A stretch of DNA of 20,000 bases from an uncultured virus (IMG/VR IMGVR_UViG_3300025470_000023) (taxonomy: Duplodnaviria > Heunggongvirae > Uroviricota > Caudoviricetes). Shown here piece by piece: positions 1 through 13,321 of the stretch (its first letter is position 1; each line of letters begins with the position of its first letter). The notes under the pieces are model-generated. The model was not told the DNA's origin. It saw nothing but the letters and a program-made list of their open reading frames with translations, and made no database searches. Where the stretch lies: IMG/VR virus record IMGVR_UViG_3300025470_000023. The stretch is one strand, 5' to 3'. The translations under genes were made by a program, and so were the position numbers.

Positions 1-2
1 AG

Positions 3-3000
3 CGCCTCGCCAAGCTGGATATGAATAACCCAGAGCACATCGAAGCTATTTCCGATGAGCTAAACAAGACACGCGTGCAGATCGAGCCTGAGAAGCTGGC
101 TGCACTGTCAAATCATTTTGATGCTATTATAAAGCCTAGTAAAACAACAGAGCAGAAGGCTTATGGCGCGCAAGGCGAACAGAACATCATTCCAAAAAGG
201 CCACCAACTGTGGACCTCGGAACGCAAAGAAAAACTACAGAACTCTTTAGCCCAGAAGCGCAAAGAGGGATGGAGCTCCTTACCCAAAGGATACAAGATG
301 TCGCCCGAAGTTATACAGAAGAGGGGCGAAACCCGGCGCAAGAATTGCTTAGGCAAACGATACCTACACAAAAGTTGCAACAAGACATATTGGGTCATTT
401 GGACACCCTCGGGGAAACGGTACGAGCATCGGGTGATTATGGAGCAGTTGCTAGGGAGATCATTACTGAAATCGGAGCACGTTCACCACAAGGACGGGGA
501 CGGCTTGAACAACTCACCCGAAAACTTGGAGCTTCTGAGCAGCAGCGCCCACGCGAAAGAGCACCATCACTTACCTCTAGGGAAATGGGCCAAGAACCAC
601 GAGGTGTGCTTGAAATGCCACAGCAAGGAGCGAAAGCACCTAGCGAAAGGCTTATGCACGAGGTGTTACCAACAAAACAAGCAGGAGAAATAGATGCCCT
701 CAACAAGCAAATCTCAAGCACGCCTGATGGCGGCAGCGGCGCACAACCCGTCTTTCGCGAAGAAGGTGGGGATCAAGCAGTCAGTGGCCAAGGAGTGGAA
801 CCAAGCGGACAAGGGGAGCAAGCTGCTGAAGTCGAAGCCCCGAAAGAAGTAGAGGCCATCCAGCAAGAAGCGCGTTCGCTCCAACCGGGAGATATTATCG
901 CCAACGATATGGGTGATAGAGTTGAGATCGTGAAATTGGGTGGTACGCTTAAAGACGGCACACAGTTGTATGAATGGCGTGACCCTGATGACCCCAATTT
1001 TGGTCCTACGAAGATGGCTACTTCTTCTCCTGAAGGTAGTGAAGGCGTGCTCTCTATACATACACTGCTGTCCCCATACCAATATCTTACGCCTGAAGGC
1101 GAACGTAAGAGCGCTCCCGGCGCTACTATAACTAGAGCACAAGAAGCACCTAAAACGGAAGAAGAGCTCACAGCGGTAGAACCGCAAAACCCTCGCGAAG
1201 CGTGGGAAGCCATGCGTAGTGAAGGCGATCCTGACCATAAGGCCCTACCGCGCGAAGCGCAGATTGCATGGAAAAGAGCCTTTGATGACGGCGCTGCAGA
1301 CAAGGCTTTCTTCGATCAGCTAAAGACCGCGATCACTCCAGAAGCAGATAGGCAGGCTGGCGAGACAGAAGAAGCCGTTGCCCCTTCTAAAAAAGACTAC
1401 GATGGTGATGAGTTCCTCTATAGCCGCGGTGAGAAACCAAAAGAAGCAACTAGCCGGGAGATGATCCATGAGACGATCAAGAACATCACTGGTGATAAGC
1501 CTACCGCTTGGAGCGTAAAAATCCATGACACGGTAGAAGATGCACAGAATCATTTGAATGAGGCTGTTTATGAAAAGCTGGATAGGGATTACCCGGCTAT
1601 TATGCGGGCTATTGACCATTTTGAACGCACGGGAGAGCTAGACCCTAATGATCCTTACTTGCCTCGTGGTGGTGTTGTATCTCGTGAGCGGCATATAGAT
1701 ATCCTGCGCGGAATAGCCAGTGATATACGCAAGAATGCTGAAGCTAAAGGGCTTACGGGGTTAAAACTTGAGCCCGATGCTAGAGGTTTCGTGCTGGGGA
1801 ACAAAGCGCATTTCGTTGTAGAAAACATCCCTAAAGGGCGGGAACTTGGGGTGATGCTGCATGAGGTGGGTGATCACCTCGGTATGGAAAAACTGTTGGG
1901 TACAGAACAGCGCTCTAGACTCGCAGCTAAAGTTGCCGATTGGGCCAAGACGCATAAAGGTCTTGAAGGTGACGTTGCTCGCGCTGCTATTGAACGTTCT
2001 CGTGGTGATGAATCAGAACACATCGCTTACTTTGTAGAAGAAGCGGTTAACCACGGCGTTGACCCCACTGCATGGAAGCCGAACTCTGGGTTTAGTGTCT
2101 GGTTCCGTCAGCTCTTGGCTGCATTCAAAGCTGGCTTACGCAAACTCGGTATCAAGAATGTTGATCGTCTGTCTGCTCAAGATATCGTAGATATGGCCTA
2201 TGGTGCGGCGCACCTTGAGTTGCGCAGTCGTTGGCATGGTGCCCCTAAAGACTTCAGAAAATTCCAGCTCAAGTATCGCGGCACTGGGGAAGGCGGCTTA
2301 GAGCCGGGTGATAGAAACGCTGAACACTTTACCGACATGATTGGTTGGGGGCATTACATGTCCGGTCGGCGTGGTATCGCTGAAGAATATCGTGATCGCC
2401 TGTCTGCGCAAGCTAAGCGTGGTACTGGAGCATTAGACCTTAAAGACTATAAAAAAGATTTTGATGTAGGCACTGACAAAGCGACCGCTTTTAGCGATGC
2501 CTATGAGATTTTACATGAAACTCGGGGGGATTTTATTAAGGCTAGGCGGCGCATAGGTTTGCACGCGCAAGAATTCACTGATGCCCTAAATGGAGTGTGG
2601 CCCACACCTAAAAATCTTCCAGATCTTATAAAACAGGCAGAGAAAGAACGTGACCTCGCATTACAGTTTATAGACACGTTTGAAAAGCACGGAGCTGAGT
2701 ATATTCCGGGCGAGCAACCAGAACCCACACTCTATAAACTCGGCATCAACGCCTTCGACCATGAGCTTATCGACTGGGAAAAACCCCTGTCTGAGCAAAG
2801 CCCTGACGTACAGCGCGTAGCTAATCGCGTAAAGAAGAAGCTGGAAAAAGAAGGAGTGCTTGACGACGTTGTCGATACGCTTAATTCAAATTGGGAAGAC
2901 ATCTCAGGTAGAGACTTCTATCGGTATGTGATGCGTAAAGCACGGGATACCGATGCTATTCCAGAGTTGTATGACTTGAGCGCCGTTAACGCAGAGAAGG

Positions 3001-6000
3001 CGGCATCTGAGTATTTGGACTCTCAAGGGATCAAAGGCATCAAGTACCCGACCCAAGGAGGGCAGGGTCCGGGCCACAACTACGTCATCTTTAGCGACAA
3101 GAATGTTCATATCGCGGGTAAGAATGTGCCGCGCACTGAAGCTGAAGGTATTCGCTACTCGCGTGCTCCTGAAGGGGAAGAAGAACGTCCCCCGCTAACC
3201 AAGATTGATCGCAGCTCTACCCTAAAGACGATCGCTAAGACTTTGAAGCGCGCGGCGTTGGCGGTTAGTGATCCGAGTGCTATGTCTGAGGAGTATGCCA
3301 AGTTCCGGCGGCGGGTGATCGCTGAGTCTGCAGGTCTGACCAAAGCTCTCGAGAATGAGCCTACCTACGATCCTGATACCGGCATTCGCGTGGACTATCT
3401 GCGGAACCAATACGACAGTGCCTATCAGTTATCTCTGGAAGGTCTGTTCAATGGTGTGCCTGTGCTTGAGCCTAAGACGGGTGTTGTGCGTATTCAGCCG
3501 ACGACTCGTACCAATCTCGATCGCATCATGGCAGATGCAGCTAAGCTACCGCTCAAAGTCTCCTATGACGGGCAGAAAAAGGAACCGCTCGAAGTCATGG
3601 CGGATATCTTCCGTATCAAGATGGGTGAACAGGAACTCAAAGAATACGAAGAAGCCAAGGTTAAGCTAAGAGCAATCGAACAGTTGCCAGAAGCTACGCG
3701 CAATCAGACCGACACCAAGGCGGAAATGGATAGGCTTAAAGAGCTTATCACTAATCAAGAAAGAGGCATTGGTCGTGAGCGTAATGTCACCCGCGAAGAC
3801 ATTCGCTGGGCTAATGACGAGATTCAACACGTACCGGGAGTGCAGGATATTCTGGATCGTTGGGGTGAGACTAACCAAGAGCTGCTACGTTTTGCGCGTG
3901 ACACCAACTGGATCACTCCTGAGAAGTATGAAGAATGGTCGGAGCGGCCCTCATACATCCCCATGTATAAGCCGATGGAAGATATCCTAGCAGAGCGCGA
4001 CGAGACACCTGCATTCCCCGGTGGTGGTCCTAAGACTGTCGGTAAGCTGTTCGGTAAGACAGGTGCGGCTAGTGCATTCCCTGTGAATGTTTTTGAGAGC
4101 TTGTCTCAGCACTATACGTCGATGATCACCAACTCCATGATGAACAACGTCAAGTATAGAGCCTTCCAGCAGCTTGAACGGGTAGGGTTGGCAGAGCGCG
4201 TTGCACCCACATACAAGGGTAAGGATGCTGTAAAGGCGCGCGCCGCTGGTAAAGACTTCCTCTATAAAGTGAAGGACGAAGAGGCATTCCGTTCGCTGAC
4301 GATGGCGAATATGTACAGCAACCCGTTCCTTGATCTAGTGGCGATCCCGGCTAATGTGGTTCGCCGTACGGCGCTGTTCCTGAACCCTGCTTACTACTAC
4401 AGGACGATGATCCATGATCCTCTCGCCGCTACGCTGACTACGACAGCTAAAGGCGCGATCGGCCCTGTGACTCCTGCAGATGCCCTGTATCAGATAGGCA
4501 AGCGGGCTGCGGGTTTTGATAAGTCGGCTAAGGATCTGCAGTACTACGGAATCAGCGGGCTCGCTAACATGGACGCCAACATGCACCGTTTCGCGCGGGC
4601 TCTTGGCGACTCACCGAAATATAACAAGTGGCTCCAGTACATTGATAAGGTCCACTCTTCTTTCGATGACGCTACGCGTACCATCGTCTATGAGGCGGCT
4701 AAGAAGGAAGCGGCTAAGGATGGCATCACTGATCCGCAGGTGATTAACGATATCGCCGCTGTTAAGGCTCGGGACTTTGCTGACTTTGCGGCCAAGGGCT
4801 CTAGTCAGCTCGTGCGTATAGCAGGTAAGCAGACTCCGTTCCTTCACGCGCATTTTGTGGGTCTGGATAAAATGCTTCGCTCTGCTACAGGGCACGGTAA
4901 GGACTCCAAGGAAGGTAAGGCTCAGCGTGATCGGTTTGTCGCTGGCGCTACGCTTGCGGCGAGTGCTGTAGTGGCTATTACTCTCGCTAACATACGTGAC
5001 AAGCGATACCGGGACCTGCCTATCGGTGAGTGGTCCAAGAACATCATTGCTGGATTTGATGATGAAGGGCGCGCAATCAAGATCCCTGTACCACAGGAAA
5101 TTGGCTTCTGGTTCAAGTTTGTTCCTGAGCTCATGACCCGTATGCTGATGGGCGTTAGTGATAAGCCTGAAGCGAGCAAGGCATTTCACGGTATGGCGAT
5201 AGATACATTGCTTCCTCCGGGTCTGGCTGACCCGATCAGTATCGCGGTGCGTGGTTGGTTGCAGATGCAGACGAATACCGAGTTGCATAGTGGCCTCCCG
5301 ATTGAAAGCCCGCAGGAACAGTTGCTCCTGCCAGAAGACAGGGACAAGAGAGCGACTATCTTTAGTAAGGCTCTGCGTGATCAACTCAAGAAGTATGGGT
5401 TGTCGGAAGACTTCTCACCAGATAAGTTCGACAGCTTTATGCGCTCCTATCTCACTACAATCTGGGATAACTCTGCTCTGGCCGCGACGATGATCCATGA
5501 TGCCTATACAGGCAAACGCAGTCTGTTTGAACTGCCTTTCAACAAAGACTTCACGGAAGTGTACCCCGGCGCTAAGGCATTCTTCAGCAATCCGAGAAAC
5601 ATCTCAGCTACGCCGCGCTTCTACGATATGGCCAAGCCGCTCTATGAAACGCTCAAGTCAGTCAATGCGGCGGCACACGGAGAAATGGATGACTCCGTAG
5701 AACGGTTTGATGAGTTACGCAATGATCCTGTTGTGATGCAACGCTACCGTATGGCGAAAGTGGCGGCTAAGTATCGGTCTAAGATTTCAGCTTTGGAAAA
5801 GGCGATCGAACAGCTTGATAACAGGCAGGATCTCACTGAGGCGCAAAGGCGCAAACTTTACTGGGACCGCATCAAGGATCGCAATGAACTTGCTAGAACT
5901 GCTGTAAATGAGCTCTCCAAGGGCCTAATGCAGGACAAGAAGTTCAAGGACGATGTAGAGAAATCTTGGAAGCTCTCTGTGTCTCCTGAAGACCTCGAAC

Positions 6001-6047
6001 GCGAGATAGGTAAGTTCAAGGAAAATACAGGTGATACGGAAGAATAA
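3..6047 (+). CDS. Giant polyvalent phage protein, probably internal virion/ejection protein (zincin-like peptidase motif, ART-like region, LPD38-like C-terminus); 5'-truncated by window edge
   Basis: The frame is open from nt 3 (upstream of the ATG at 21) to TAA 6045-6047. Motifs: GVMLHEVGDH (HExxxH, ~1860-1877); WHG...GTGEG...GWGHY...DWEKPLSEQ...GIKGIKY...NYVIF (ART-like, ~2230-3115); IKIPVPQEIG...GLPIES...SPDKFDSFMRSY (LPD38-like, ~5040-5600); xYSR domain-boundary motifs (FLYSR, IRYSR). No Cys seen in 2008 aa. Confidence 0.85.
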   Translation, partial: RLAKLDMNNPEHIEAISDELNKTRVQIEPEKLAALSNHFDAIIKPSKTTEQKAYGAQGEQNIIPKRPPTVDLGTQRKTTELFSPEAQRGMELLTQRIQDVARSYTEEGRNPAQELLRQTIPTQKLQQDILGHLDTLGETVRASGDYGAVAREIITEIGARSPQGRGRLEQLTRKLGASEQQRPRERAPSLTSREMGQEPRGVLEMPQQGAKAPSERLMHEVLPTKQAGEIDALNKQISSTPDGGSGAQPVFREEGGDQAVSGQGVEPSGQGEQAAEVEAPKEVEAIQQEARSLQPGDIIANDMGDRVEIVKLGGTLKDGTQLYEWRDPDDPNFGPTKMATSSPEGSEGVLSIHTLLSPYQYLTPEGERKSAPGATITRAQEAPKTEEELTAVEPQNPREAWEAMRSEGDPDHKALPREAQIAWKRAFDDGAADKAFFDQLKTAITPEADRQAGETEEAVAPSKKDYDGDEFLYSRGEKPKEATSREMIHETIKNITGDKPTAWSVKIHDTVEDAQNHLNEAVYEKLDRDYPAIMRAIDHFERTGELDPNDPYLPRGGVVSRERHIDILRGIASDIRKNAEAKGLTGLKLEPDARGFVLGNKAHFVVENIPKGRELGVMLHEVGDHLGMEKLLGTEQRSRLAAKVADWAKTHKGLEGDVARAAIERSRGDESEHIAYFVEEAVNHGVDPTAWKPNSGFSVWFRQLLAAFKAGLRKLGIKNVDRLSAQDIVDMAYGAAHLELRSRWHGAPKDFRKFQLKYRGTGEGGLEPGDRNAEHFTDMIGWGHYMSGRRGIAEEYRDRLSAQAKRGTGALDLKDYKKDFDVGTDKATAFSDAYEILHETRGDFIKARRRIGLHAQEFTDALNGVWPTPKNLPDLIKQAEKERDLALQFIDTFEKHGAEYIPGEQPEPTLYKLGINAFDHELIDWEKPLSEQSPDVQRVANRVKKKLEKEGVLDDVVDTLNSNWEDISGRDFYRYVMRKARDTDAIPELYDLSAVNAEKAASEYLDSQGIKGIKYPTQGGQGPGHNYVIFSDKNVHIAGKNVPRTEAEGIRYSRAPEGEEERPPLTKIDRSSTLKTIAKTLKRAALAVSDPSAMSEEYAKFRRRVIAESAGLTKALENEPTYDPDTGIRVDYLRNQYDSAYQLSLEGLFNGVPVLEPKTGVVRIQPTTRTNLDRIMADAAKLPLKVSYDGQKKEPLEVMADIFRIKMGEQELKEYEEAKVKLRAIEQLPEATRNQTDTKAEMDRLKELITNQERGIGRERNVTREDIRWANDEIQHVPGVQDILDRWGETNQELLRFARDTNWITPEKYEEWSERPSYIPMYKPMEDILAERDETPAFPGGGPKTVGKLFGKTGAASAFPVNVFESLSQHYTSMITNSMMNNVKYRAFQQLERVGLAERVAPTYKGKDAVKARAAGKDFLYKVKDEEAFRSLTMANMYSNPFLDLVAIPANVVRRTALFLNPAYYYRTMIHDPLAATLTTTAKGAIGPVTPADALYQIGKRAAGFDKSAKDLQYYGISGLANMDANMHRFARALGDSPKYNKWLQYIDKVHSSFDDATRTIVYEAAKKEAAKDGITDPQVINDIAAVKARDFADFAAKGSSQLVRIAGKQTPFLHAHFVGLDKMLRSATGHGKDSKEGKAQRDRFVAGATLAASAVVAITLANIRDKRYRDLPIGEWSKNIIAGFDDEGRAIKIPVPQEIGFWFKFVPELMTRMLMGVSDKPEASKAFHGMAIDTLLPPGLADPISIAVRGWLQMQTNTELHSGLPIESPQEQLLLPEDRDKRATIFSKALRDQLKKYGLSEDFSPDKFDSFMRSYLTTIWDNSALAATMIHDAYTGKRSLFELPFNKDFTEVYPGAKAFFSNPRNISATPRFYDMAKPLYETLKSVNAAAHGEMDDSVERFDELRNDPVVMQRYRMAKVAAKYRSKISALEKAIEQLDNRQDLTEAQRRKLYWDRIKDRNELARTAVNELSKGLMQDKKFKDDVEKSWKLSVSPEDLEREIGKFKENTGDTEE
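163..693 (+). CDS. HNH endonuclease (NUMOD3-like N-terminus, HNH core, C-terminal Cys finger) nested in the +1 frame of the giant gene
   Basis: 176 aa. YEHRVIMEQLLGRSL...EHVHHKDGDGLNNSPENLELL...HAKEH is a typical phage HNH core. SFQKGH and GYKMSPEVIQKR resemble NUMOD3 motifs. C-terminal CLKC...HLAKGLCTRCY. Confidence 0.88.
   Translation: MARKANRTSFQKGHQLWTSERKEKLQNSLAQKRKEGWSSLPKGYKMSPEVIQKRGETRRKNCLGKRYLHKSCNKTYWVIWTPSGKRYEHRVIMEQLLGRSLLKSEHVHHKDGDGLNNSPENLELLSSSAHAKEHHHLPLGKWAKNHEVCLKCHSKERKHLAKGLCTRCYQQNKQEK
694..852 (+). CDS. Small basic phage protein (52 aa) nested in the +1 frame of the giant gene; absent from the ORF track
   Basis: ATG 694 directly follows the HNH stop (TAGATG), with AGGAG at 683-687. 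Translation: MPSTSKSQARLMAAAAHNPSFAKKVGIKQSVAKEWNQADKGSKLLKSKPRKK*, TAG 850-852. It resembles, from recall, a widespread small phage protein type MPSxSKxQxxxMAAxAHNPxFAKKVG. Confidence 0.8.
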   Translation: MPSTSKSQARLMAAAAHNPSFAKKVGIKQSVAKEWNQADKGSKLLKSKPRKK

Positions 6048-10757: not shown

Positions 10758-10785
10758 ATTTTACACACTTATATTACCCTGTCAA
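10758..10785 (-). promoter_or_regulatory. Sigma70-type promoter overlapping the helicase 3' end
   Basis: TTGACA (10785-10780), 16-nt spacer, TAAAAT (10763-10758); 42 nt upstream of ATG 10715. Confidence 0.7.
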
Positions 10786-13269
10786 CTCCTGTTGATACAT
10801 ATCTAACAAAGTTTCTTGCGCCAGAGTCCTTTCCTCCAAAGCTTTGTAGAGCTGGCGCTCCACGGCTGAGCTAACCAACTTCACCACAAGGCACGGGTTT
10901 CTCTGCCCCGCTCTATGCACTCGGGCGTTCGCTTGTAGCCAGATTTCTGCGGAGGTCACAGGACCGAACCAGATGATCGTATTGGCCGCTGTCAAAGTGA
11001 CACCATGCGCGGCTGACTGAGGCTGAATGATTAGAACGTGCGGGTTGGGCGTAGTCTGGAAGTCATTGAAAATCTCTGCCCTGCGTTTGGCTGACACCCC
11101 GCCGTGTATGGTGGCCGTAGTGATGCCCTGCTTCTCAAGGTACGTCTGTACCATGTCGATTGAATGTCTGAAGTTGCAGAAGATCAGAACCTTGTGGCTA
11201 CTCTCCTGTACGACCTCAAGCATCTCCTCTAACTTATTCTTACAGTCGAACTCGACAACCTCGCCGCTATCCGAATACACCGACCCACAGTTGTGGACGA
11301 TGACGGGACCTTCTTTCCCCGCTACAACAAACCTAGACCGGGGTCCGCAGTTAAGTAGGTCGTAAGTTGCTTCCCTTTGTTTGGGGACGCTTTCAGTGCC
11401 AAATCTATAGGCCAACCCGCCTTCAGGCGTCTTCTCAAGGTGACAGACTTGAGTCCGTATTCCTCTGCTGCTTGTGCTACAGTCATTTTTCCATTCGGTG
11501 TGTCTATAAGAATGTTCACCCTCGTGTTGCGCCCCTGATCCTTGGGTGTAGCCCACCGGCAATTCTCCGGTGAATACGGGCCGTTGTTGTCTATCCTGTC
11601 TAGCGTAAGCCCGTCCTTGTGCATAGGCCCCATATCCGACCAGAACATCTCGAATGAAGACCGCCAGCGTTCGCACACCACAATTCCACGTTCTCCGTAA
11701 TTTTTGTAGTCCTTGTCTAAAGGATCGTGACAACGCGCTACCATGCTGTGATAGTTTGAATACACTGGCTTTTTGCTCATTTTGTGTTTCTCGTTGCCGT
11801 GGTGGCATCCGCAACTTCTTGGGTGCTTCCTGTGCTTTGCTCTTAGATACTGACTCCTGCGAATTACGCGCCGCCCACAATCGCACAGGCAAAGCCACGT
11901 CGCGCATTGCACCGAAATTCCGCTCGTCGTTCCAGCTCTCTCTATAACTGTCAGGTACCCGAACTTCTGTCCTATTAAATCTTTTGCTGGATTTGCCATA
12001 AATAATATCCTCCGCTGTCTGCCATCCTGCGGTGGTGAGAACCCTATGGTCCGAAGTCATACGTACACCGTAGCACTCGCGCACTTCTTTAAGCCCACGA
12101 CATGCCAGCCCATCATGTGCTACCCATTCTTCACCATCCCACACTCTATGCGCTGTGGTTACTTCTTGAATCGGTACCCACCCAACGTCTGTAAGTACAG
12201 GTGTATTATACGCAATACAAGATATTTGTAACAGTTTGTTCATACCCACTGCCGCATTGAACGCTGTGATATCTGCACTGGCAACTTGGATCAGCATCTC
12301 TTTCTTGAGGAGCTTGTAGTATTTCTCCTGTTGCGCTGTGAGGGGCGTGTCACGCTCAGAGTAAAGAAGCTCTGGTAGATCGAGGCACTCATCCTTGGTG
12401 AACCTGATGGCAGGCTGAAGCACCTCATGGACTACCTGCTGTGCCTCGGGTTTGGGGATGTATTTGAACGCGCTGATCTTCAGCATGACTCGATCGCGGA
12501 ACAACCCTACGAACTGCGGAACACTCGTGGGATTCATCATCTTGGCGAGGCCGTAGGCATCGAGTGGGCTCTGTGCCGCAGGTGTGCCCGTCAGCATCCA
12601 CACCCATGTGTCCGGTCCGATCAGGCTATTGATCATCTTCCAACGCTTGGTCGTTGCTGTCTTGATGTAGTTGGCCTCATCCAGAACAATAAGGTCGAAC
12701 CCACCCAGAGCCAGCTCGCTACGCACGGACTCCACACCATCGTAGTTGATAATGACGAACTCGGCATTGGAGTCGATCACCTTGGCTCGCTTGGCTTTCG
12801 ATCCGTGGGCAATGTCTACCCTACGCTTCATGACCGTCCTGAATAGATCTGCTCTCCATGCTGAGTCCATGATAGACAGAGGGCAAATGACGAGTACCCT
12901 GCGAATGAACCCGAGCTTCATGAGATAGTCAGCCGCCCAGATAACGGACACGGTTTTGCCTAGCCCCTGCTCGTTCCAGCAAAATGCTCTACGGTTGAGG
13001 GTCAGAAAGGCGGCGGTTTCCTTCTGGTGATCGAAGGGCGTGTATCTCCCCGGCCAATCGTATTGACGCACGATAGGAGCCGGTGCTTTCTTGAAGCCCA
13101 GATTGCGAAGGATCTTTGTGTTAGGCAGGTTCCATTTGACTGCCACCTCGTAGCCGTTGCCATTGGGTAGCGAAACTTCCTTCACTACCGCAGACTTCGG
13201 AATCACTTCGGTGATCTTCTCTGGATTGCGGGTGCGCACGATGAGTGCGCGGTCCTCTACGATTTCCAT
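10774..13269 (-). CDS. SNF2-like superfamily 2 helicase precursor containing an intein (831 aa precursor, ~521 aa spliced)
   Basis: Motifs EQGLGKT, IINYDG, LDEA, MLTGTP, HGVTLTAA and QANARVHRAGQ. GAGGT lies upstream of ATG 13269. Confidence 0.92.
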   Translation of the reverse strand: MEIVEDRALIVRTRNPEKITEVIPKSAVVKEVSLPNGNGYEVAVKWNLPNTKILRNLGFKKAPAPIVRQYDWPGRYTPFDHQKETAAFLTLNRRAFCWNEQGLGKTVSVIWAADYLMKLGFIRRVLVICPLSIMDSAWRADLFRTVMKRRVDIAHGSKAKRAKVIDSNAEFVIINYDGVESVRSELALGGFDLIVLDEANYIKTATTKRWKMINSLIGPDTWVWMLTGTPAAQSPLDAYGLAKMMNPTSVPQFVGLFRDRVMLKISAFKYIPKPEAQQVVHEVLQPAIRFTKDECLDLPELLYSERDTPLTAQQEKYYKLLKKEMLIQVASADITAFNAAVGMNKLLQISCIAYNTPVLTDVGWVPIQEVTTAHRVWDGEEWVAHDGLACRGLKEVRECYGVRMTSDHRVLTTAGWQTAEDIIYGKSSKRFNRTEVRVPDSYRESWNDERNFGAMRDVALPVRLWAARNSQESVSKSKAQEAPKKLRMPPRQRETQNEQKASVFKLSQHGSALSRSFRQGLQKLRRTWNCGVRTLAVFIRDVLVGYGAYAQGRAYARQDRQQRPVFTGELPVGYTQGSGAQHEGEHSYRHTEWKNDCSTSSRGIRTQVCHLEKTPEGGLAYRFGTESVPKQREATYDLLNCGPRSRFVVAGKEGPVIVHNCGSVYSDSGEVVEFDCKNKLEEMLEVVQESSHKVLIFCNFRHSIDMVQTYLEKQGITTATIHGGVSAKRRAEIFNDFQTTPNPHVLIIQPQSAAHGVTLTAANTIIWFGPVTSAEIWLQANARVHRAGQRNPCLVVKLVSSAVERQLYKALEERTLAQETLLDMYQQELTG
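11290..12219 (-). mobile_element. Intein (310 aa) in the helicase
   Basis: Block A CIAYNTPVLTDVGWVPIQEV (Cys codon 12219-12217), block B MTSDHRVLT, block F TYDLLNCGPRSRFVV and block G VIVHN followed by +1 Cys. The ligated exteins read KLLQIS/CGSVYSDSGE. Confidence 0.92.
11322..11999 (-). CDS. HNH-family homing endonuclease encoded in the +1 frame inside the intein
   Basis: 225 aa: DLIGQKFGYLTVIERA...WLCLCDCG...SCGC, YKNYGERGIVVCERW, LTLDRIDNNGPYSPENCRWATPKDQGRN, and a C-terminal HTH-like segment. GGAGG (12013-12009) lies 9 nt before the ATG. Confidence 0.9.
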   Translation of the reverse strand: MANPAKDLIGQKFGYLTVIERAGTTSGISVQCATWLCLCDCGRRVIRRSQYLRAKHRKHPRSCGCHHGNEKHKMSKKPVYSNYHSMVARCHDPLDKDYKNYGERGIVVCERWRSSFEMFWSDMGPMHKDGLTLDRIDNNGPYSPENCRWATPKDQGRNTRVNILIDTPNGKMTVAQAAEEYGLKSVTLRRRLKAGWPIDLALKASPNKGKQLTTYLTADPGLGLL

Positions 13270-13321
13270 GTGTACCTCTGATAGCAACCACGTTAAGGCC
13301 GTGGCAGGAGCCTATCCAACA

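Follow-up and report, generated by a model that had tools for sequence, protein, structure and literature searches.

The window analyzed here, a stretch of 20,000 nucleotides from an uncultured virus of the Caudoviricetes (IMG/VR record IMGVR_UViG_3300025470_000023), carries a complete gene for an HNH endonuclease that lies wholly inside a giant open reading frame (ORF), on the same strand and in its +1 frame. The host frame stays open across the HNH gene and across a small conserved gene that follows it in the same +1 frame, and this openness is under selection, not a product of chance. We consider it probable that the HNH gene is of the homing type and is maintained by dual coding, unspliced, with the giant gene being read through it. 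The window corresponds to the minus strand of a viral contig of 35,499 bases, whose completeness is estimated at ∼56%; the coordinates of the features discussed are collected in Table 1.

An earlier note on this DNA, made from its letters alone, had reported the complete HNH ORF of 176 amino acids inside an ORF of more than 2000 amino acids, a host frame free of stops through the overlap, a hydrophilic host-frame translation without Cys or Trp in an apparently Cys-free giant protein, and the lack of intein motifs and of obvious room for a group I intron core. These observations are all borne out below. The note had treated positions 163–852 as one stop-free stretch; the stretch is indeed open, but the note had overlooked that 694–852 is a separate conserved gene.

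The nested HNH gene and the open host frame

Both the ORF listing and Pfam identify the HNH gene: its protein matches HNH_3 with 43.3 bits (cut-off 24.8; E 2.7e-11; profile positions 2–45 of 46), and it also matches 12 PHROG HNH families. In an alignment of eight homologues, all 30 invariant family columns are kept by the window protein (including H106, H108, H109, N117, N121, H130, H134, C149, C152, C165 and C168), with conservation of the His/Asn/His motif and of a putative Cys4 zinc site. The predicted structure (predicted local distance difference test, pLDDT, 78.5) appears to have the beta-beta-alpha-metal fold; the top structural match of the model is I-HmuI (PDB 1u3e; Z 7.3, root-mean-square deviation 2.9 over 73 residues, model residues 64–139; VIA-align), with I-PpoI and other HNH nucleases ranking after it. 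The window protein is absent among the called proteins of a 5.8-billion-protein collection, in which its best homologues show 66%, 48%, 41%, etc. identity. No match was found among PDB sequences for the protein, or among deposited phages in a DNA search with positions 1–3000 of the window.

Between 163 and 852 the host frame has no stop codon, against 12 in the third frame. Among the 229 pairs of consecutive nested codons in this segment, 77 are at risk (the second codon begins with AA, AG or GA); the first codon ends in T in none of these 77 pairs, versus 15 of the 152 other pairs. T makes up 6.5% of third positions in the segment; the parts of the giant gene on either side of it have 31% each, and in 15 further ORFs of the genome the figure is 24.9%. 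What the nested genes have at their third positions mirrors the composition of the giant gene at first positions. When the 230 codons were recoded with the codon usage of the genome, the host frame acquired 17.5 stops on average and never fewer than six (0 of 20,000 recodings were stop-free), and permuting the segment's own synonymous codons gave a mean of 4.2 stops (P=0.003). These figures take the place of the naive probability of 2e-5 that the earlier note had given for 230 stop-free codons; its view that the open frame is not due to chance stands. The longest open run in the same offset frame elsewhere in the genome (9,360 other codons) is 153 codons. The same codon-level avoidance of stops is seen in two nested homologues of the HNH gene described below, and therefore the host frame has been selected to stay open, as dual coding requires.

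The host-frame translation of 163–852 has no Cys and no Trp, and the filler it would add to the giant protein is hydrophilic like its surroundings (grand average of hydropathy −0.88; −0.73 and −0.90 for the neighbouring parts). There is no Cys among all 2,645 residues of the giant protein.

We looked for splicing elements and for promoter-like or terminator-like sites around the insert. An Rfam cmscan of positions 1–1500 on both strands gave no match at E≤1, and thus no intron family; no Hint or intein Pfam family was detected in the host-frame protein at E≤0.01; and no promoter-like or terminator-like site was found in 1–1200. The host-frame insert, whose borders fall between ...KP and SKTT... 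at one end and between ...SST and PDGG at the other, has no Cys, no terminal His-Asn and no intein residues at its ends. The segment might still be removed from the RNA by an unrecognized intron or passed over by the ribosome in a long-range bypass, so that the filler would never be made: Rfam holds described families only, and translational bypass exists in T4 gene 60. This is very unlikely, because with removal or bypass nothing would select against host-frame stops, yet they are avoided in the window and in both nested homologues (L190 and L196). Moreover, the small gene is nested in every giant without the HNH gene too, the insert lengths are multiples of three, and the lack of an Rfam match speaks against an intron.

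The earlier note had also named an assembly chimera as an outcome that would refute its interpretation. The closely related contig L107 and contigs of sequencing runs X9 and X10 bridge both junctions without gaps, and with independent assemblies spanning the junctions a chimera is ruled out. Contigs of four sequencing runs show no joint and no HNH-less allele.

Alleles without the HNH gene and relatives of the HNH gene

As a test of its interpretation, the earlier note had proposed a search for alleles that lack ∼180–200 codons at this site, in frame. Such alleles exist: giant homologues, both close and distant, are ∼181 codons shorter precisely at this point, in frame. In the giant ORF of L108 (2,699 codons, from a metagenome scan), which has no HNH gene and whose flanks are 76–95% identical to the window at the amino-acid level, the protein runs from ...DAIKP through 14 codons to PDGG...; the window segment that stands there instead (Table 1) spans the HNH gene and the diverged first nine codons of the small gene. 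Out of 13 giants found with residues 600–960 (word-index search), two have the HNH overlap and 11 do not. Among 14 giants, 12 lack the HNH gene (P0300–P0309, P0131 and P0216), and in one of these (P0300) the sequence to either side of the empty site matches that of the window. The gene is thus present or absent at one site among homologous alleles (two with, 12 without), as expected for a mobile gene. An allele with the HNH overlap, P0125 (2,254 a.a., contig L107), is 98–99% identical to the window giant over residues 1–913 and 1690–2645; P0131 (2,221 a.a.), without the overlap, is 57–59% identical at both ends. Searches of viral contigs contributed little to this set: the upstream part of the giant found only the near-identical L003, which ends before the site, the downstream part found two distant loci, and P0131 as a query found 70 loci, all via another domain, with the small gene only in L023.

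The window and L107 are identical over a 712-base block that includes the insert (run X10 gave an independent assembly of this variant), as compared with 69 differences in 2,010 bases of the upstream flank. This fits recent transfer, though the same pattern would result from ordinary recombination. The HNH insert of the window is not flanked by a direct repeat; a repeat at 142–165 and 633–656 lies inside the HNH gene and seems to be due to chance.

Free-standing HNH homologues do carry stops in the offset frame, as the note's interpretation had called for: 30 out of 30 viral loci with the HNH core (∼22 distinct) have 4–30 such stops. A second, profile-based set contains 45 HNH loci, and the two closest full-length homologues in it (L190 and L196, 41% identity) are themselves nested: the HNH gene of L190 lies in the +1 frame of a 2,829-codon ORF with an ART-PolyVal domain, and that of L196 in the +1 frame of a 1,884-codon ORF. 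Both have no stop in the offset frame (12 and 16, respectively, in the other frame). T-ending codons are found in none of their at-risk pairs (0/70 and 0/77), though 23 and 29 of their codons end in T, and for each of them none of 5,000 own-codon permutations was stop-free. Among ORFs of at least 97 codons, only the nested HNH members keep the host frame open. The giants of L190 and L196 found only themselves in the viral-contig scans, so that these scans yielded no empty-site allele for them. On either side of the L196 insert lies one copy of a 44-base direct repeat (70% identity), which takes in an ATG and its first codons; the two copies are spaced 669 bases (223 codons) apart.

Four short HNH-core ORFs (66–79 codons; two distinct, L217 and L231–233) are also stop-free in the offset frame. 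Third-position T is low in L217:4070–4270 and L231:3905–4278 (and likewise in L232 and L233), and L231 has two overlapping same-strand ORFs of ∼120 codons each. Judging from these sequences, they may be further dual-coding cases.

The genomic contexts of the HNH relatives point to the small gene. In L192–194 and L197–198, free-standing HNH relatives (with 8 and 13 offset-frame stops, respectively) each lie next to a small-gene homologue encoded on the opposite strand, 36–37 bases away from its start; these homologues match the small-gene family profile with E 9e-28 and 7e-8. The HNH ORF of L190 opens with six residues that resemble the N-terminus of the small gene. Members of this HNH group thus recur at the small gene's 5' end, and since its free-standing relatives stand head-to-head with that gene, the HNH lineage probably homes there.

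The HNH gene could instead be a domesticated or decaying passenger, with the frame held open only for the giant protein and the HNH protein either not made or used in another role; HNH proteins also serve in DNA packaging (PMC11855218). The poor ribosome-binding site at its start, and its occurrence in only two of the 14 giants, would agree with this. But all invariant family residues are intact in the window HNH, and all three nested homologues, at 41% identity, keep the full HNH_3 domain. The insert is also identical in two phages whose upstream flanks differ at 3.4% of bases, and HNH relatives are found again and again, in three different arrangements, next to this small gene. We therefore regard the passenger explanation as unlikely, and favour an HNH gene that is still of the homing type.

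The small gene, the giant protein and a proposed mechanism

The small gene is nested in the giant ORF on its own account. Its protein matches phrog_16759 (E 1e-22), and also two families of 'virion structural protein' (phrog_22033 and phrog_25121) over their first 46 residues; no Pfam family covers 694–852. The family is very large, with 1,126 homologues among longer proteins and relatives in 134 deposited phage records (phage 121Q, for instance, has it at the start of gene 51). Virion structural proteins of jumbo phages have the small domain as their N-terminus. In viral contigs, however, the small gene is usually on its own (79 out of the 80 best loci), and free-standing homologues such as P0051 share the same short basic C-terminal tail, which indicates that the 52-codon form is complete.

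Alleles without the HNH insert nest the small gene too. The shadow of the small gene in the giant frame is present in all 14 related giants (P0131 included), together with a conserved residue pair that encodes the nested start codon. L108 nests the small gene at the same place (L108:12021–12176), with a GTG start and AAGGAGG six bases upstream, and HNH-less alleles have AAGGAGG or GAGGT where the window has AGGAG. Two distant giants, L109 (25–39% identity; 3001–3177) and L023 (298–456), also nest it in the +1 frame, each with its own Shine–Dalgarno-like sequence and ATG. Between the window and L108, there are nine differences in small-gene codons 10–52, all nine synonymous in the small frame and none in the giant frame; thus constraint acts on the frame of the small gene, and the giant frame is a free linker at this place. 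The first nine codons are different: 16 of their 27 bases differ from L108, versus nine of 129 further on. The small-gene DNA is almost identical over ∼75 bases between L109 (3050–3130) and the window (755–830), in giants that share 25–39% protein identity, which hints at a recent exchange of this segment.

The giant ORF might actually be two genes, with the small gene being the true N-terminus of the downstream part and a frameshift or sequencing error creating the present arrangement, as the position of the small domain at the start of larger virion proteins in jumbo phages (phrog_22033, phrog_25121 and 121Q gene 51) could suggest. We consider this extremely unlikely: no stop is found in the upstream part, the arrangement is the same in four independent assemblies, and all 14 giants are single ORFs across the site. 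In addition, the short basic tail is also present at the end of free-standing homologues (P0051), and the small genes of L108 and L109 have their own Shine–Dalgarno sequence, start and stop.

A single giant ORF is in fact the norm, since most of its homologues have 2,000–3,000 residues: a full HMMER search with giant residues 401–1500 gave 588 homologous proteins, mostly in this range, and the giant homologues are single ORFs of 1,937–2,700 codons. The complete ORF of the window giant starts 1,890 bases upstream of the window, ends at 6047 and has 2,645 codons. The giant has the features of a polyvalent protein (Iyer et al. 2017): it is very large and multidomain, matches the Pfam family LPD38 (E 3.2e-15), and is encoded among virion genes (tail-fibre, virion and endolysin genes lie upstream of it, on the same strand). 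According to PMC5512222, polyvalent proteins of phages are presumed to go into the capsid, and sometimes to be cut by peptidase domains of their own. The middle of the giant (window ∼855–3170; residues ∼920–1690) is mosaic, with unrelated segments of differing length in L107, L108 and P0131, and both ends stay 57–99% identical around it; this looks like domain shuffling within a polyvalent protein.

Table 1. Positions of the nested genes, their host ORF and other features in the window
Feature	Position	Strand	Remarks
Giant ORF, part in the window	3..6047	+	5'-open in the window; polyvalent, probably virion-type
Block identical to L107	120..831	+	0 of 712 bases differ
HNH-bearing segment	138..722	+	195 codons versus 14 in the HNH-less L108; net +181 codons, in frame
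Shine–Dalgarno-like AGAAGG	154..159	+	weak; only 3 bases 5' of the HNH ATG
HNH endonuclease gene	163..693	+	176 codons; +1 frame relative to the giant ORF
Shine–Dalgarno-like AGGAG	683..687	+	6 bases 5' of the small-gene ATG; inside the 3' end of the HNH gene
Conserved small gene	694..852	+	52 codons; same +1 frame as the HNH gene; its ATG abuts the HNH stop codon
SNF2-family helicase ORF	10774..13311	−	845 codons
Intein-like helicase insert	11290..12219	−	helicase residues 365–674
ORF in the helicase insert	11322..11999	−	225 codons; helicase +1 frame

These observations suggest how the arrangement may have arisen. A free-standing HNH gene of the homing type would have been inserted into the giant gene where it encodes a flexible hydrophilic linker, directly 5' of the small gene, which itself lies in the +1 frame; the length of the insertion is frame-neutral. 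Nothing would be spliced: ribosomes translating the giant gene would read through the HNH gene in the host frame, adding ∼181 hydrophilic filler residues to the linker, and the HNH and small proteins would be made from their own internal +1-frame starts, the HNH protein poorly. The arrangement would persist because selection removes host-frame stops, leaving no T-ending HNH codons in front of codons that start with AA, AG or GA. Spread of the putative endonuclease probably relies on cuts that it makes in HNH-less alleles, close to the small gene's 5' end. As polyvalent proteins are presumed sometimes to be cut by their own peptidase domains (PMC5512222), the filler might, by inference only, be trimmed away as well.

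Several points weigh against this interpretation or parts of it. The weak AGAAGG only three bases before the HNH ATG makes the HNH start a poor initiation region. Permutation of the own codons of the HNH gene alone gave a mean of 3.1 stops and P=0.016 only. The structural match to I-HmuI is middling (Z 7.3), and a Foldseek search of the HNH model against the PDB gave no match at E≤0.001. It is the gene context and the family names that suggest a virion-type giant protein. Ordinary recombination could account for the identical 712-base block, since a stretch of 267 bases upstream is also free of differences. As for the association with the small gene, L190 has no small gene at all, the small ORF after the L196 HNH gene has no significant similarity to the small-gene family (E 0.52), and the HNH tree is too poorly resolved to support or reject a single origin of nesting.

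A stronger version of the mechanism, which is tentative and in our view rather doubtful, is that the HNH lineage is specialized on the 5' end of the small gene, with long-term frame-compatible coding, homing and co-conversion, to form a three-layer gene-in-gene mobile module. If this is true, homing with co-conversion would explain the near-identical small-gene DNA between giants of 25–39% protein identity, and the free-standing sister endonucleases would be a natural control for the three-layer module.

Comparison with known systems

The earlier note had presented dual coding as a splicing-free intragenic lifestyle of its own; the in-frame indel and the avoidance of stops uphold the lifestyle, but ShiLan-domain work had described it earlier. 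An out-of-frame, splice-free HNH lifestyle was published in 2025 for phage methylases, and the window carries a further example of it. The ShiLan-domain work reportedly had a 2023 precursor paper (PMC9957025). The ShiLan domain and the Pacc40 gp60 insertion carry out-of-frame HNH genes in DNA methylase genes of actinobacteriophages (Arsenault, Gosselin and Gogarten 2025, PMC11855218). The similarities are many: the insertion brings no stop into the host frame and encodes the HNH gene in an alternative frame, signatures of inteins or introns are lacking, the distribution among alleles is disjunct, read-through is presumed, and related HNH genes are free-standing beside the host gene (upstream) in other phages. 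There are also differences. The host in the window is a giant polyvalent protein with the insert in an inter-domain linker, whereas theirs is a dispensable methylase; the ShiLan HNH gene is in the third frame, whereas that of the window is in the +1 frame; the window insert abuts a second conserved nested gene, its apparent target; and codon-level stop avoidance was measured in the window, whereas PMC11855218 never mentions 'codon usage'. A tblastn search of the window HNH against 50,697 phage records, among which the ShiLan and Pacc40 phages were not confirmed, gave no match at E≤1e-5. In the literature searched we found no case of the same arrangement in giant or virion proteins, the cases that came up being methylases or inteins.

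Free-standing endonuclease genes that split their host genes are related in another way: mobE in Aeh1 nrdA, mobA in T4 gene 60/39 and seg in phage 25 gene 43 (Edgell et al. 2010, PMC2988022), and also the ZC03/ZC08 cases (PMC5418858). Like the window HNH gene, they are found inside a coding region without an intron or intein, have a poor initiation region (as described for T4 free-standing endonuclease genes in PMC2988022), and are sporadic among relatives. However, their host is cut into two polypeptides that reassemble, whereas the host ORF in the window is whole and would be read through. A small gene with its own start that lies wholly in the +1 frame of a larger gene is known from lambda Rz/Rz1 (PMC5418858), but Rz1 is a lysis lipoprotein tied to Rz, whereas the small gene of the window is a widespread, usually free-standing phage domain. 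I-HmuI of phage SPO1 is an HNH homing endonuclease and, as shown above, the best structural match of the predicted HNH model; the identity is 18%, with no match to the PDB at the sequence level. I-HmuI is intron-encoded.

Inteins with a separate out-of-frame homing endonuclease gene (bioRxiv 10.1101/2025.01.02.630785 and 10.64898/2026.09.14.751524) likewise carry an HNH gene out of frame in a host ORF that stays open. Their filler is removed by protein splicing, whereas the insert of the giant gene has no intein features. A candidate for this hidden-HNH type, a design described in preprints of 2025–2026, is found in the same window: in the SNF2-family helicase ORF, Pfam shows the two helicase lobes to be 345 residues apart, and the insert between them begins with Cys and ends with His-Asn followed by Cys, as an intein would. 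Inteins are marked by Hint splicing blocks, Cys, Ser or Thr as the first and +1 residues, and a terminal His-Asn. No Hint family was detected in the helicase insert. The 225-codon ORF inside it matches an HNH endonuclease family (phrog_374, E 1.7e-60), and the helicase frame has no stops across this ORF (21 in the other frame). This appears to be a second hidden HNH gene of the same phage, inside a helicase intein, so that a single phage genome can contain both solutions, a read-through insert and an apparent hidden-HNH intein.

For genome annotation, the HNH case brings to light a small overlapping gene that is overlooked by standard gene callers, and long ORFs with T-poor third-frame islands deserve a check for hidden mobile genes. 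The controls for this case are unusually clean: empty-site alleles, free-standing sisters that bear stops, and three nested lineages in which stops are avoided at the level of single codons. The case extends the splice-free, out-of-frame endonuclease lifestyle from dispensable methylases to giant, probably virion-packaged polyvalent proteins of uncultured freshwater phages.

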